NCBI GenBank assembly: GCA_964187785.1
Contig: OZ076409.1
Coordinates: forward strand, 50,904,001-50,968,000
DNA from: Amphiscolops sp. MND2022
Lineage: Eukaryota
Direction of reading: 5' to 3'
DNA: 64,000 nt
Shown here: piece after piece, positions 16,733-29,282 of the stretch
Position numbering within the stretch: position 1 is the first letter of the stretch
Layout of the letters: each line of letters begins with the position of its first letter
Notes under the pieces: model-generated
Seen by the model: the letters and a program-made list of their open reading frames with translations, nothing else
Database searches by the model: none
What the model was told of the DNA's origin: nothing
Position numbers and translations under genes: made by a program

Positions 16733-17040
16733 AGTAGTAGTGGAAATCCCGATACTGGCCACAAAAACTCCAAAAATTAAAAGTACTCAAAACCATTGAT
16801 TTTAAGGACTTTTTAGAAAACATATCATTAAAATCAGGGGTTTTCCAATACTGGCCAACAAAACGCCAAAAATTAAAAGTCCTCAAAACCATTGATTTTG
16901 AGGACTTTTTAGAAGACAAATCATCAAAAACAGTGTTTTTATCATGAAGCAAAAAATTCACTAACCTCTATGATGCAATGTGTAATAATAACACGTTGCT
17001 GTACAACCAACGTTAATGTACAACCAGCGTTAATGTACAG
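16733..17040 (+). repeat. Polinton left terminal inverted repeat
   Basis: The outer ~100 bp is almost identical to the reverse complement of 29182-29282. It contains an internal ~97-bp-period duplication and ~3 copies of a 17-bp unit at its inner end. Confidence 0.93.
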
Positions 17041-17067
17041 TCAGCAACAATGAAAAAAAACTAATAA

Positions 17068-17499
17068 ATGGCACGACAGTTAACACAGCTTCACAATTAC
17101 CTCTCATTCAAAGACTTTGTTGAAAAATATGGATTAAAAAACGAAGCAACTTCCAATGTAAAAATAAAAGAAATACTTAATGAATTAAATATTCCATGTG
17201 GAATATACATGAGAGATGATAAGTTTAACACTACCAGTGGTATAGTTAACTTACATCCCTCAGTGGGAACACATTGGGTTATGTTTACAAATCAAAATTA
17301 TTTTGATTCATATGGATGCCCACCCCCAACTAATATACTTAATCATATTAAAAATGGTATTTATTCAGAATATCAAATTCAGACCAACGACAGTTATTGC
17401 GCGGCGTATTGTTTATACACACTGTATCTCACAAGTAAAATTGGGTTCAAAAATGCAGTACTAAATTTATACTACCAAACTTTCAAACTTAATAAATGA
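17068..17499 (+). CDS. Adenovirus-like cysteine protease (adenain / Polinton PRO)
   Basis: GIVNL...GTHWV...YFDSYG.PPP...QIQ...SYCAAYC gives H, D, Q and C catalytic residues in adenain order. Confidence 0.92.
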   Translation: MARQLTQLHNYLSFKDFVEKYGLKNEATSNVKIKEILNELNIPCGIYMRDDKFNTTSGIVNLHPSVGTHWVMFTNQNYFDSYGCPPPTNILNHIKNGIYSEYQIQTNDSYCAAYCLYTLYLTSKIGFKNAVLNLYYQTFKLNK

Positions 17500-17726
17500 A
17501 GAAAATTAATAATTATTCAACTCAATATGAAATTATCTCGCACAGCTTCGCGACAGCTAACGCACAAAATTTCACGCACAGCTCCACAGAACAGCTTCAC
17601 AATCAAAATCATGGAAAAAATACAACAAATTTGCGGAAGCTATCGCATAAGAAAACATTATCAAAAGATAGGCAAGAATTTATAAATAACATTTCCGCTA
17701 GTGGATTCAAACAATTTAATCTATAA
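17496..17726 (+). CDS. Small hypothetical Polinton protein (76 aa)
   Basis: Overlaps the protease stop (ATGA), has the shared TAATAAATG start context, and abuts the next gene. Confidence 0.6.
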   Translation: MKKINNYSTQYEIISHSFATANAQNFTHSSTEQLHNQNHGKNTTNLRKLSHKKTLSKDRQEFINNISASGFKQFNL

Positions 17727-17729
17727 TAA

Positions 17730-18789
17730 ATGGATCTATCCACCTTCGTAACTTATGATAAAAAAGAATCTCTTCTTTTAAGTATTGCAAAATCTAATCA
17801 AGAAATTGTTGAAAATACTCATTCTAAACCACAAGAAACTCTAGAATTTAAAATGAATAAACAAAAAGAATCTTTCTCAATTGATGTTCCTCTCATTTTA
17901 AATGAAAAATGGATGATGGGAGTAACAAGTTTAGAAGTGTACAATACAGTTTATAATATCACTAACAGCAATAACAAACTACAGATTATTCTAAATGATC
18001 GACAACTCGATGCACTTGAGTTTGACACAGGAGTGGTGCCAAATATAAAAAAAACTATTTGAAACTTATGATTTAGAAAATAATAAACTTTACTATGAAT
18101 TTATAGAAAAAGCTAATATATTTACTTACTAGTTATAAAAAAAGAAGAAACTTCCGAAAAAAGATTTTGACTATTTAAAGCAAATGAAGAGCAACATTCC
18201 TATAACTATTCCAAACTTTGAAATTGAGAATGAGTTTATTGATATAAATTTAGTTCCAGGTGTATACGAACTGATTGAAATAAATAATACCATAAAACAA
18301 ATAATTACTGATTCAGGTTATGAATTAGATGATAAGTCAAAATTCAAAAAAGATCTTACAGTTTTTAGTATTGAATTCAACATAATACCCGACACAATAT
18401 CGATGAAATCAGTTTTAACAACCTCAAACCCTATTCATTTTAACTCCAAACTTAACAAAGTCCTGGGGTTTACACAACGTGATTACCCATCCGGAACTCA
18501 CACTTCAGAAAAACCAGTCATGATAACAACAACCGATAAAGTTCATCTGAAGTGCGACTGTGTAGATGGTTCAATTGTTAATGGTATACGAGAACAAATT
18601 TTATTTTCTTTCAATTTAAGCGCACCTCCCGGATATAAAATTATAAAAGAAACCACAACTGTTTTGTACAAATCAATTAACAAAACACGACTGGACACCA
18701 TTCAATTTTTCCTTGAGGACTCTAATCATGATTCAGTTGATTTCAACGGGGAGACACTCACCTTCACAATTCAAATTATTAAAATATGA
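17730..18789 (+). pseudogene. Minor capsid (penton) protein, frameshifted
   Basis: N-part WMMGVTSLEVYNTVYNITNSNN; C-part PGVYELIEIN...HLKCDCVDGSIVNG...ILFSF...PPGYKI...VDFNGE, typical of Polinton pentons. Breaks occur at homopolymer runs near 18050 and 18120-18140. Confidence 0.85.
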
Positions 18790-18868
18790 TGTTGGGCGAT
18801 AGTTTTCGCGATAGCTTTCGCGATAGCTTTCACGAAGCTCCACAAAAATGATAATTTTTTTCTAATAA

Positions 18869-26978: not shown

Positions 26979-27703
26979 TTATAAAAAATTGTGTGGTTTA
27001 AGTGGTATTGTTGGTGGTGTGTGTGAAGCTGTGTTAGATGTCGCGTTAGCTGTCGCGGTAGCTGCCGCGTTAGCTGTCGCGTGTGAAGCTACTTGTGATT
27101 TTGTATGCAAAGCTGTGCGCGAAGCTGCGCGTGATTTTGTGTGAATTTCCTGTGAAGCTACCTGCGAAGCTTCGCAATAATTTTCAAATTGAGTCACAAA
27201 TCGGTGATATTCATTTTCATCTATATGATTATCTTTTAGGCTAGTGACATAAAGTTGTCTAAAGTCGTCAAGAGTCTTCTGAATAATAGTGTACTTAAGT
27301 TTATAATTTTGCTCCTTTTTTTCAAATAACCGGAACAAATCTTAACAAGAATACCAGTTGTACAACCAACTCCTGCAGCGATTGGAACAACTATAATACC
27401 CACACCAGTAATACTTAGTGAGATTGATGCTGAAGTTGTTCCAATCACTATAATGCCATCGAGGGAGTTAATTAGGTTATTTATTAGCTTGTATTTGTTG
27501 TATTTCTGTTTGTATTTCTTTTCTTCCATTTCATAATATTTCATCATTAGACTAATGTTTTGAATAGAATTATTGAAGCTATTTACTTTTTGTAATTCGT
27601 TTTGCAACGCGCTTTGCAATCGCTTATTTATCATTGATTCTACATCATATGGTGCGGGGGGAGAGGCCGTTGGGGTCAGGGAGGGATAGAGTTTTTGTTC
27701 CAT
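26979..27703 (-). pseudogene. Membrane-associated Polinton protein (~240 aa), frameshifted in an A-run near 27320
   Basis: MEQKLYPSL..., coiled coil, Gly-rich hydrophobic segment (GIIVIGTTSASISLSITGVGIIVVPIAAGVG), then YLKK/KEQNYK...SLKDNHIDENEY in the next frame. Confidence 0.7.
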
Positions 27704-27706
27704 TTA

Positions 27707-28534
27707 TTAATCATATAAAATGAAATTTATTTCCGTTGGTGTTAATTTCATTCTGTGTTTCATATCAACAAGATCTTTAAAATTGTCTTTTTTCAATGAC
27801 TCCAGAATTGATTGTCCGGTAGAATATTCTAAATCAGACAGATAATATTCACCATCTGAAGTAGGTATTGTTTTTCCATACTTTTCCAAGAGGTATGTTT
27901 CACTGAAAGTTAGATAATTTGCAAAAGCTTGATCTTTATTGGGAAAGGAATCGAACAAAACTTTGTCATAAAGCAGTTGAATTATGTTGTTAGTTATAGT
28001 AATTTTATTTTGATCTAGGCTATTAAGAATATTATTTATTTCATCTTCATTTAGAATCATTCCAGCTTGACCCACCTGACTCATAAACTTTAAATTACGA
28101 ACTGTTAACATTTCAAAACTATTGTTGTGTATTAAATTTAGTACCTCATTTACTAAGGCAGTTCTTTGTTCGGCGAAAGATTTTTTCATATTTTGTTCTA
28201 ATTTATTTATGGTTTTTGAAAGGTCTGAAAACTGGGAATAAATATCATTCATTAACTTTGTGTTTAATAAAACATCTTGAATTTCCTGTGGGTCTAGTGT
28301 TTGGTGCGCCTTCGCGATAGCTACCGCGGAAGCTGTCGCGTCTAGCATTTTTTCTTCTACTTGATTTTCTATGTCATTTTCAAAATCGCGTTGCAAATCT
28401 TCTTTCAATTTGGAATGTGTTATTTGGGCTAATTTTTCTTGACTTTTTATCAAATCTTTTAGCTCCTGATATTCCCTCAGTTTTAGCTGTTCACTAGAAT
28501 AACCAAACTTATGAAGAGACGGAGTTTCATACAT
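27707..28534 (-). CDS. Hypothetical coiled-coil Polinton protein (275 aa)
   Basis: Intact ORF with TAATAAATG start; its stop abuts the next gene's start motif. Confidence 0.75.
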   Translation of the reverse strand: MYETPSLHKFGYSSEQLKLREYQELKDLIKSQEKLAQITHSKLKEDLQRDFENDIENQVEEKMLDATASAVAIAKAHQTLDPQEIQDVLLNTKLMNDIYSQFSDLSKTINKLEQNMKKSFAEQRTALVNEVLNLIHNNSFEMLTVRNLKFMSQVGQAGMILNEDEINNILNSLDQNKITITNNIIQLLYDKVLFDSFPNKDQAFANYLTFSETYLLEKYGKTIPTSDGEYYLSDLEYSTGQSILESLKKDNFKDLVDMKHRMKLTPTEINFILYD

Positions 28535-28554
28535 TTATTAAGATGAAAAAGTTG

Positions 28555-28820
28555 AAAAATACAAAACCCATAGGCATGCCATTGGTATTGACATGCCTAT
28601 GGTAAACTCAAAGCCCATCGGGAGTCCGTTCCACTAAGAGTTTCCACAGCAGGGATTATCCTTTTTAAGAACTGTGCCATTGGTGATTATTCTCCCATAG
28701 CATGTAAGTTGTAACAAAGACTGGGGGACGTTGGATGCGAAGCTGCGCAGAAGTGAACCCCAAACACTCCGGCCGAAGCCTTAACTTTAGTCAATGCTAT
28801 AACCACTAAGCTATGGGAGA
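28555..28820 (-). ncRNA. Candidate structured small RNA (tRNA-like 5' end, Pol III A box)
   Basis: Minus strand begins TCTCCCA-TA-GCTTAGTGGTTATAGC. Features: 11-bp terminal stem (28691-28701 with 28810-28820), a cUUCGg hairpin, and a downstream 11-bp hairpin (28568-28602) followed by T-runs. Confidence 0.5.
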
Positions 28821-28865
28821 CGAATCAATGTTAGTTGTAGTTATATAAGAATAACGTATGCGCCG

Positions 28866-29282
28866 GTACATTAACGCTGGTTGTACATTAACGTTGGCTG
28901 TACATTAACGCTGGTTGTACAGCAACGTTGGTTGTACATTAACGTTGGTTGTACATTAACGCTGGCTGTACAGCAAAACGTTGGTTGTACATTAACGCTG
29001 GCTGTACAGCAAAATTAACGCTGGTTGCAACGTTGACATTAAACTATAGAGGTTAGTGAATTTTGCTTCATGGCAAAACACTGTTTTTGATGATTTGTCT
29101 TCTAAAAAGTCCTTGCGAAGCCCTGCAAAATCAATGGTTTTGGCGGAAGCTATCGCGTAGTCCGAATTGGAAAACCATTGTTTTTAATGATGTGTTTTCT
29201 AAAAAGTCCTTAAAATCAATGGTTTTGAGTACTTTTAATTTTTGGAGTTTTTGTGGCCAGTATCGGGATTTCCACTACTACT
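28866..29282 (-). repeat. Polinton right terminal inverted repeat, including ~9 copies of a 17-bp unit GTACATTAACG(C/T)TGG(T/C)T
   Basis: Reverse complement of 16733-17040, with an expanded 17-bp array (28866-~29040) and a locally remodelled inner segment. Confidence 0.92.

Follow-up and report, generated by a model that had tools for sequence, protein, structure and literature searches.

An ultra-short two-armed insertion unit in one Polinton family of Amphiscolops sp.

The closest described counterparts of the DNA reported here are a few very small repeated or mobile sequences. MUSE1 of Podospora mitochondria (mitochondrial ultra-short element; Koll et al. 1996) is an undecamer that is repeated, invasive and recombinogenic, and that occurs at recombination junctions (PMC1864894, PMC7272585, PMC2670323). 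SDR5 of the Nostocaceae enters the motif HIP1 precisely between bases 3 and 4 (PMC4390886), and GC42 of yeast is 42 nt long and has a putative AG target duplication (PMC4478555). The unit studied here lies in a Polinton copy within a 64,000-nt stretch of Amphiscolops sp. MND2022 (contig OZ076409.1, positions 50,904,001 to 50,968,000; the whole stretch is called the window), and its two arms have the sequence of DNA mini-hairpins. Among the 64 GCNNNGC loops only GNA folds, GAA being the most stable (76 C); GNNA loops melt at ~70-76 C, mini-hairpins withstand both 3' and 5' exonucleases, and the RNA form of the GNA mini-hairpins is weak (39 C), as reviewed by Kimoto and Hirao (PMC13037366). We are confident that this ultra-short unit is a selfish micro-insertion in one Polinton family and not a working code. 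Isolated units have been added precisely at new sites, and arrays have then grown by slippage.

Abundance and grammar of the unit

Within the Polinton copy (16733-29282), the pattern GCG-N1-2-AGCT-N1-2-CGC has 54 hits over both strands, corresponding to 27 sites, compared with a mean of 0.01 and a maximum of 2 in 200 dinucleotide shuffles and with none in the ~51 kb of flank. Half-sites also exceed their shuffled counts: 26 vs 0.76 for GCGNAGC, 51 vs 1.04 for GCGNNAGC and 7 vs 0.96 for GCGNNNAGC. A looser grammar, which admits purine-N-purine arms, identifies 41 units in the element, 30 of them within open reading frames (ORFs).

Genome-wide, there are 3,664 12-mers, 5,326 14-mers and 1,091 13-mers, against 134, 226 and 389, respectively, for reversed-pattern controls. 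The Polinton copies that carry units are nuclear and lie on large contigs of a eukaryotic genome of 1.07 Gb; they are not mitochondrial. Among the first 50 12-mer sites of contig C1, 44 lie inside copies of the family to which the window copy belongs (family A) and six lie outside. Spread into host DNA gained no support from two of these six, which belong to a host repeat whose 20 aligned copies all show the motif as a fixed hairpin and never as an insert. Other longer host stems tipped by GCGAAGC occur in the window (46037, 49069, 57102, 60077 and 47688-48631) and at loci L079-L098; their stems, GATC-GCGAAGC-GATC and GGC-GCGAAGC-GCC, are fixed within their families.

The unit can be written as GC-GNA-GC-TNC-GC (12 bp, 3+3 loops) or GC-GNNA-GC-TNNC-GC (14 bp, 4+4 loops). 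Beside the canonical tail, the loop spacer has one base in 146 contexts, two in 149, three in 35 and none in 1. The second arm is of the G.A type in 140 of 216 12-mer contexts, A.A in 45 and A.G in 18, and in 14-mers G.A closes it in 146 of 171 contexts. The initial annotation, made from the letters alone, had described the element as peppered with mini-hairpin motifs. Its enrichment is borne out by the shuffle counts, and the motif positions it listed were correct on re-check. Its 12-bp unit needs correction, the basic unit being a 12-mer or a 14-mer and not the 12-bp period of arrays. Its restriction of variation to loop bases does not hold, since the second arm is frequently ANA or AGG.

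Throughout the genome the two arms of a unit tend to have the same length (3,664 and 5,326 units against 1,091 mixed), and few units are perfect palindromes (5 where 25.8 were expected, and 1 vs 15.3); units are thus apparently copied whole. The scarcity of palindromes fits descent from asymmetric founders, and together with the matched arm lengths it rules out both local fold-back and the pairing of free arms in the manner of a primer-dimer. Standard folding by ViennaRNA or nearest-neighbour rules does not model GNA mini-hairpins.

Filled and empty sites, reading frame and direction of change

The window copy was compared with 77 stretches from ~50 sibling copies, a sample in which 40 of 1,584 candidate places were scored. 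Clean indels between copies (n=1,165) peak at 12 bp (373), followed by 24 bp (108) and 36 bp (51). Another copy has an empty allele at 64 of the 110 sites where a unit stands alone, namely 51 12-mers, 13 14-mers and no 13-mers. Once three mirror duplicates are removed, 44 of 48 distinct 12-mer sites are blunt, with an insert that runs from GC to GC and flanks that are joined in the empty copies. Most 14-mer inserts share GC, or another one or two bases, with the target or bring in one extra base. Target duplication never extends beyond 1-2 bases, ambiguity is at most one base at most sites, and there is no fixed target-site duplication. For 31 of the 41 units in the window copy, some sibling has a shorter version or none.

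GCGAAGC is present in 38 of the 44 blunt inserts, at least one GNA arm in 43 and two GNA arms in 24. With the dominance of one- and two-base spacers, this upholds the mini-hairpin grammar recognized at the outset and fits the published rule that only GNA folds. Targets are pyrimidine-purine (YpR) steps in 33 of the 44 (24 of them CA/TG; background 24%, p=1e-12), and over 88 strand ends the base 5' of the unit is T in 44, C in 33, G in 10 and A in 1. Orientation shows no strand preference (23 vs 21). The GC ends of the unit are not shared with the AGTAGT ends of the Polinton; a transposase partner elsewhere in the genome was not sought.

Unit-like 12-bp indels are non-tandem at 81 sites and tandem at 34, and a minisatellite or variable-number tandem repeat was rejected on these counts as the sole source of length change. 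A further 52 non-tandem 12-bp indel sites are unmatched within two mismatches, many of them being decayed units. Decay takes the form of C-to-T and G-to-A changes, which account for 168 of the tallied mismatches in old units. At 17540-17600, 20120-20300 and 27005-27190 of the window, in both halves of the element, decayed units have changed from CG to CA on the coding strand, so that unit decay is strand-biased and follows gene direction. The CpG ratio is 0.6 in the element without its units and 0.88 in the flanks.

Reading frame has filtered the inserts. The length change is a multiple of three in 35 of 35 coding inserts, compared with 19 of 25 non-coding ones (Fisher p=0.0035). Since 14 of the 35 coding inserts are found in one copy only, they appear to have arisen while the element was replicating, which suggests that inserts arise during replication under selection and not after integration. 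Frame selection would also account for the two size classes, because 12-mers survive blunt and 14-mers survive in arrays of 12-bp period, and 13-mers do neither; all 13-mers of the window are intergenic. Avoidance of stop codons, with 0 of 6 in frame, is not significant (p=0.09). Alignment with other copies and homologous proteins, a check proposed in the initial annotation, shows that unit sites are indels, and its observation that motifs sit in frame within ORFs is confirmed by the coding inserts.

The direction of change is indicated by allele frequencies and by an outgroup. At 46 blunt sites the insert is the minor allele in 31 cases, tied in 11 and the major allele in 4. A second Polinton family of the same genome (family B) has 65-67% DNA identity to family A over 4 kb, and its copies are mutually mostly 95-99% identical. 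No two-armed unit was found in 330,020 bases of family B (20 copies), whereas family A loci gave 686 strand hits over 400,000 bases. At the 46 unit sites that can be aligned to family B proteins, the B protein is shorter by at least three residues at 34, equal at 9 and undecidable at 3. Clean cases are provided by the integrase, with KPKQPRSFAKFQV in family A vs KPKQP----KFQV in family B, and by the capsid, with GSSGGEAAQSTPT vs GNSG----ESTPT. As family B has neither the units nor the extra residues, the unit is derived, lineage-specific and dispensable for a Polinton. An assembly artefact was rejected because inserts are common to several copies, in frame, present in independently deposited proteins and missing from family B.

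The second ATPase has no match in family B. Its 120 homologues contain four-residue inserts at several separate positions and are enriched in unit-encoded tetrapeptides (355 vs 53), and the ALAS encoded by the unit at 22437 is missing from the more distant of them. In 137 distant integrases, unit-encoded tetrapeptides are not enriched (46 vs 50). The polymerase and endonuclease motifs of families A and B are of the same kinds, and a polymerase defect in family A was rejected as a cause because the motifs are intact in both. Family B loci (L138, L158) differ from family A loci (L002, L022) in gene order and carry two ORFs without a family A match, one of them cysteine-rich. Their terminal repeats (L138:250-310, L158:5310-5480) contain single-strand runs like GCGAAGCGAAGCG without the two-armed unit; these runs are a possible ancestral source of the arm.

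Possible routes of movement

We see an even chance that the unit moves as a free blunt oligonucleotide whose ends are set by the mini-hairpin at the 5' side of each strand. The 5' end of each strand is the first G of a mini-hairpin sequence, and strand-displacement replication is established for protein-primed polymerases. Such replication would leave single strands, and an exonuclease digesting them would halt where a folded GC-GN(N)A-GC arm begins with its 5' G. Two opposite capped strands, or one strand and its run-off copy, could then form a blunt 12- or 14-bp piece, which may be captured where another family member replicating alongside has a break or a stalled 3' end, for the most part at a pyrimidine-purine step and often aided by a 1-base (C/G) or 2-base (GC) match. 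Selection would purge frameshifting inserts, leaving 12-mers that are blunt and 14-mers that have a GC overlap or one extra base, and slippage would turn these into 12-bp-period arrays and so into more donors. Flanks of inserts and of potential donors do not match in excess once the same site in other copies is excluded (p=0.75; counting that site gave a spurious p=0.0001), and donors in the same copy are not in excess either (0.59 vs 0.63, p=0.77), as expected for free pieces.

Several points weigh against this account and the reading behind it. The mechanistic steps are all inferred. At least one non-GNA arm is present in 20 of the 44 blunt inserts; such an arm should not fold, and yet its end is still precise. 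Non-GNA arms lie 5' on the coding strand at 10 sites vs 2, a bias which suggests that they come from decay after insertion and which rescues the account only in part. An AGG arm can arise in place, as in the window unit at 26349, and this weakens the argument for heredity from recurring variants. The YpR preference and the avoidance of 5' A are not predicted by a free-piece model. Recombination between copies (2-4 changes per site in local trees) leaves both negative donor tests with low power. Family B is not shorter at 12 of the 46 alignable sites, all in stretches that are poorly aligned by eye, and its lack of units could equally reflect an enzyme of family A.

More tentatively, the unit may be a 12-base DNA replicator without a dedicated gene, consisting of two opposed GNA mini-hairpins and passing as a free heritable oligonucleotide that is recaptured by replicating genomes. 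If so, it would stand as the simplest member of a general class of mini-hairpin micro-parasites, to which fungal mitochondrial inserts might in principle also belong, and the unit would have reshaped the proteins of an animal virus family four residues at a time.

Direct copying offers an unlikely alternative to capture of a free piece. Here a stalled polymerase would switch to a unit in the displaced strand or a sister genome, copy it and return, with hairpin folding freeing the nascent end. A 1-base C/G match is possible at 30 of the 44 blunt junctions and a 1-2-base match for most 14-mers, and quasi-palindromic units would allow a nascent strand to pair with the displaced strand of the same polarity; one insert lies ~30 bp from an identical unit with 6 flanking bases in common, and units are confined to one replicating family. 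These points are countered by the lack of a general donor-flank match or same-copy donor excess, by the 14 of 44 junctions without any match, and by the entry point at the last C, which nothing on the copied strand defines. We regard as slightly less likely still that an enzyme excises and inserts the unit, whether a structure- or YGCR-specific nuclease or recombinase, the candidates covered by this estimate being the endonuclease-VII-like domain of the polymerase, the second ATPase and a host topoisomerase cutting 3' of pyrimidines. An enzyme would agree with the precise ends, with a target rule that recreates Y-GC-R at both ends (5' neighbour A in 1 of 88) and with the tolerance of any purine-N-purine arm; topoisomerase IB prefers a pyrimidine at -1, the polymerase carries the endonuclease-VII-like domain, and the second ATPase is unmatched in family B. 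However, both families retain the same endonuclease and exonuclease motifs, integrase duplications are 6 bp long and the unit makes none, and an enzyme of the host would be expected to place units in family B and in host DNA as well.

The code envisaged in the initial annotation, a selected structural or protein-binding signal that the displaced strand would carry during replication or packaging, is compatible with the strong enrichment and the true mini-hairpin grammar, and GNA hairpins are described as acting in phage origins, the N4 promoter and Streptomyces telomeres (PMC13037366, PMC4513846). Nevertheless, with 31 of the window's 41 units optional or variable in length among siblings and 20 copies of a young and numerous family B that have none, with no peptide trace in the 137 distant integrases, no strand preference and decay of old units, a code is very improbable, and as a requirement it is largely refuted. 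The selfish micro-element that the same annotation had offered as a guess agrees with the precise presence and absence of units, their in-frame position in genes and their lack in the outgroup family. RNA-templated insertion by a reverse transcriptase and an endonuclease, the mechanism proposed for Podospora MUSE1 by Koll et al. (via PMC2670323), could draw on the reverse transcriptases of the Pao element and the long interspersed nuclear element (LINE) within the window, and several targets have a T-run next to a purine. We consider it scarcely credible, as the inserts have no duplication and no poly(A) and are family-specific, with none in family B and few in host DNA (family A holds 44 of the first 50 genome matches), and the RNA hairpin is weak (39 C). 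Equally scarcely credible is an origin without mobility, in which fold-back or stem-loop synthesis of the Pol theta kind makes the motif in place and slippage multiplies it. Slippage plainly accounts for the arrays and the 34 tandem unit-like 12-bp indels, and Pol theta is described as extending 2-bp stem-loops (PMC11292364), but the 81 non-tandem sites are left over, many empty sites are AT-rich without a template nearby, and fold-back predicts the perfect palindromes that are depleted.

Carrier element and comparison with known systems

The carrier has the hallmarks of Polinton/Maverick elements, or adintoviruses (PMC11071308, PMC8502044): AG...CT inverted termini, a 6-bp duplication, an rve integrase, a packaging ATPase, a protein-primed PolB and a capsid. 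Its ends are AGTAGT/ACTACT, AATAAC is duplicated on both sides, and its terminal inverted repeat measures 117 nt at 97%. The window copy lacks ~2.6 kb of capsid and polymerase sequence that siblings possess, so that both genes are truncated; Exo I-III and Pol A-C motifs are found in the sibling polymerases. The ORF at 17068-17499 is a candidate cysteine protease gene, with H-W...F-D-S-Y-G...C-like residues and no Pfam protease match. The positions of these features and of the individual units are listed in Table 1.

Table 1. Units, genes and boundaries of the family A Polinton copy in the window
Feature	Position	Strand	Remarks
Polinton copy (family A)	16733..29282	.	AGTAGT termini; internally deleted
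Target-site duplication AATAAC, left	16727..16732	.	
Target-site duplication AATAAC, right	29283..29288	.	
Left terminal inverted repeat region	16733..17045	+	shorter than in siblings
Right terminal inverted repeat region	28555..29282	-	three units not in the left repeat of this copy
Second A32-like ATPase ORF	21998..22948	-	Pfam Pox_A32 4.7e-8; units at 22437 and 22876
Retroviral-like integrase	23261..24113	+	rve 2e-11; split over two frames in the window copy
Double-jelly-roll capsid gene, 5' part only	24205..24861	+	Pfam 4e-5, below cut-off
Protein-primed polymerase gene, 5' part	24965..26866	-	endonuclease-VII-like zinc domain, Exo I/II motifs; broken, truncated
Junction of ~2.6-kb deletion	24844..24847	.	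GTTC microhomology; capsid 5' part joined to polymerase gene
Two overlapping units (12-mer and 14-mer)	17540..17563	.	intergenic
14-mer GCGGAAGCTATCGC	17633..17646	.	empty site with single GC (net 12 bp) in 9 siblings; full in 6
Short unit array	18796..18840	.	copy number variable
12-mer GCAGAGCTTCGC	19835..19846	.	blunt, in frame; siblings 17 empty, 3 full
12-mer GCAGGGCTTCGC	20183..20194	.	within unit-derived linker
12-mer GCAGAGCTACGC	20456..20467	.	blunt, in frame; 13 empty, 8 full
14-mer arrays (12-bp period)	21119..21280	.	first ATPase gene; copy number variable
(GCGATAGCTTCC)n array	21867..21998	.	0 to ~9 repeats across siblings
14-mer encoding ALAS	22437..22450	.	near-fixed in close siblings; not in more distant homologues
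12-mer	22876..22887	.	in REATREA linker
12-mer GCAGGGCTTCGC	23232..23243	.	blunt, close to integrase start; 9 empty, 9 full
Unit cluster	24117..24186	.	intergenic; only 13-mers (3+4) of the window, 11-bp-period array
12-mer GCGTAGCTTCGC	25249..25260	.	blunt, in frame, endonuclease-VII-like domain; 9 empty, 2 full
12-mer GCGAAGCTCCGC	25544..25555	.	polymerase gene
12-mer GCAAAGCCCTGC	26349..26360	.	GCGAAGCTCTGC in siblings; blunt, in frame; 7 empty, 4 full
14-mer and 1-bp duplication	26570..26583	.	net 15 bp, in frame; 13 empty, 2 full
14-mer and 12-mer arrays	27043..27130	.	partly decayed
12-mer GCGAAGCTTCGC	27164..27175	.	rare perfect palindrome, blunt; 17 empty, 5 full
Two 14-mers	28314..28339	.	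code for part of ATASAVAIAKA; 0-2 units across siblings
12-mer GCGAAGCTGCGC	28737..28748	.	blunt, in right terminal repeat; siblings 19 empty, 1 full
12-mer GCGAAGCCCTGC	29115..29126	.	blunt; 21 empty, 1 full
14-mer	29143..29156	.	hot spot; siblings with nothing or other unit variants

The 4-bp microhomology deletion ends 1 bp from a unit site of siblings L025 and L040, and its junction may mark a break-prone spot. At 17039-17045, the left terminal repeat is ~400 bp short relative to siblings. Elsewhere in the genome, three family A ATPase regions lie in tandem ~7.6 kb apart (G000:C12:9664215-9681914), which suggests a tandem array of partial elements. To the left of the Polinton, the segments 810-4452 and 6181-9831 of the window are nearly identical and form a tandem duplication whose period is ~5,370 bp. 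To its right are a Pao/BEL retrotransposon (DUF1759, Peptidase_A17) and a LINE (endonuclease, reverse transcriptase), at 50022-53549 and 61112-63286.

Literature searches returned no description of such an insert in Polintons, nor of the motif in mitochondrial genomes, with subscription journals outside their coverage; the words palindrom and hairpin are absent from one Polinton paper (PMC8502044). No relatives were found in the viral and metagenome contigs searched, and the 19 viral matches to a double 14-mer are all in DNA of 53-70% GC. A scan of 132 metagenome stretches, with 78 loci examined, yielded one fungal mitochondrial nad5 intron (metagenome contig, L233:2985-3055), which has a LAGLIDADG ORF with the in-frame insert MLRASEATH, present twice and containing GCGAAGCTACGC. 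This insert has the same alternating-arm grammar as the Polinton unit and is missing in the close homologues P0297 and P0298; as one locus, it is a lead. Many contigs of 35-45% GC (L178-L253) carry an abundant palindrome of ~100 bp that resembles a miniature inverted-repeat transposable element and ends in GCGAAGC runs, including GCGAAGCTTCGC.

The system offers thousands of copies, dozens of filled and empty allele pairs and a sister family as a clean negative control. The anatomy of the unit maps onto a well-measured DNA structure, which makes the movement of gene-less elements of 10-30 bases (MUSE, SDR, GC clusters) testable. It also provides a route by which a viral lineage can gain four-residue insertions throughout its proteins, and a warning that a selfish motif can pass for a functional code.

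Like MUSE1, the unit measures ~11-12 nt, has many dispersed copies and no gene, and here optional presence at homologous sites and a derived state are seen as well. It differs in its location in a nuclear Polinton and in its two arms, degenerate loops, 12- and 14-nt classes and frame filter. SDR elements (small dispersed repeats; Elhai et al. 2008) are likewise very small, precisely inserted and without coding capacity, whereas SDR5 has one fixed target (HIP1) and the Polinton unit enters diverse YpR steps at about half the SDR size. SDRs are 21-27 nt long. Double-hairpin elements are reported from Allomyces. HIP1 itself (GCGATCGC, cyanobacteria) is a highly iterated GC-rich palindrome inside genes, but it is a fixed 8-mer tied to methyltransferases, whereas the unit is degenerate and adds length as indels. 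Mitochondrial GC clusters are likewise GC-rich palindromes inserted into AT-rich genomes, are polymorphic for presence or absence and merge into arrays (PMC4478555); compared with GC42, the inserts here are 12-14 nt long, mostly blunt, and have 2-bp stems on opposite strands. Each arm is exactly a d(GCGNAGC)/d(GCGNNAGC) mini-hairpin sequence, with GAA dominant and loops of 3 or 4 nt only, and the natural examples described each act as one site within an origin or a promoter, in contrast to a two-armed insert that spreads (PMC13037366). In its working the unit resembles ultra-short invasive elements; by location, target or duplication it is no member of MUSE, SDR5 or GC42, and it is likely to be among the smallest selfish DNA units seen.

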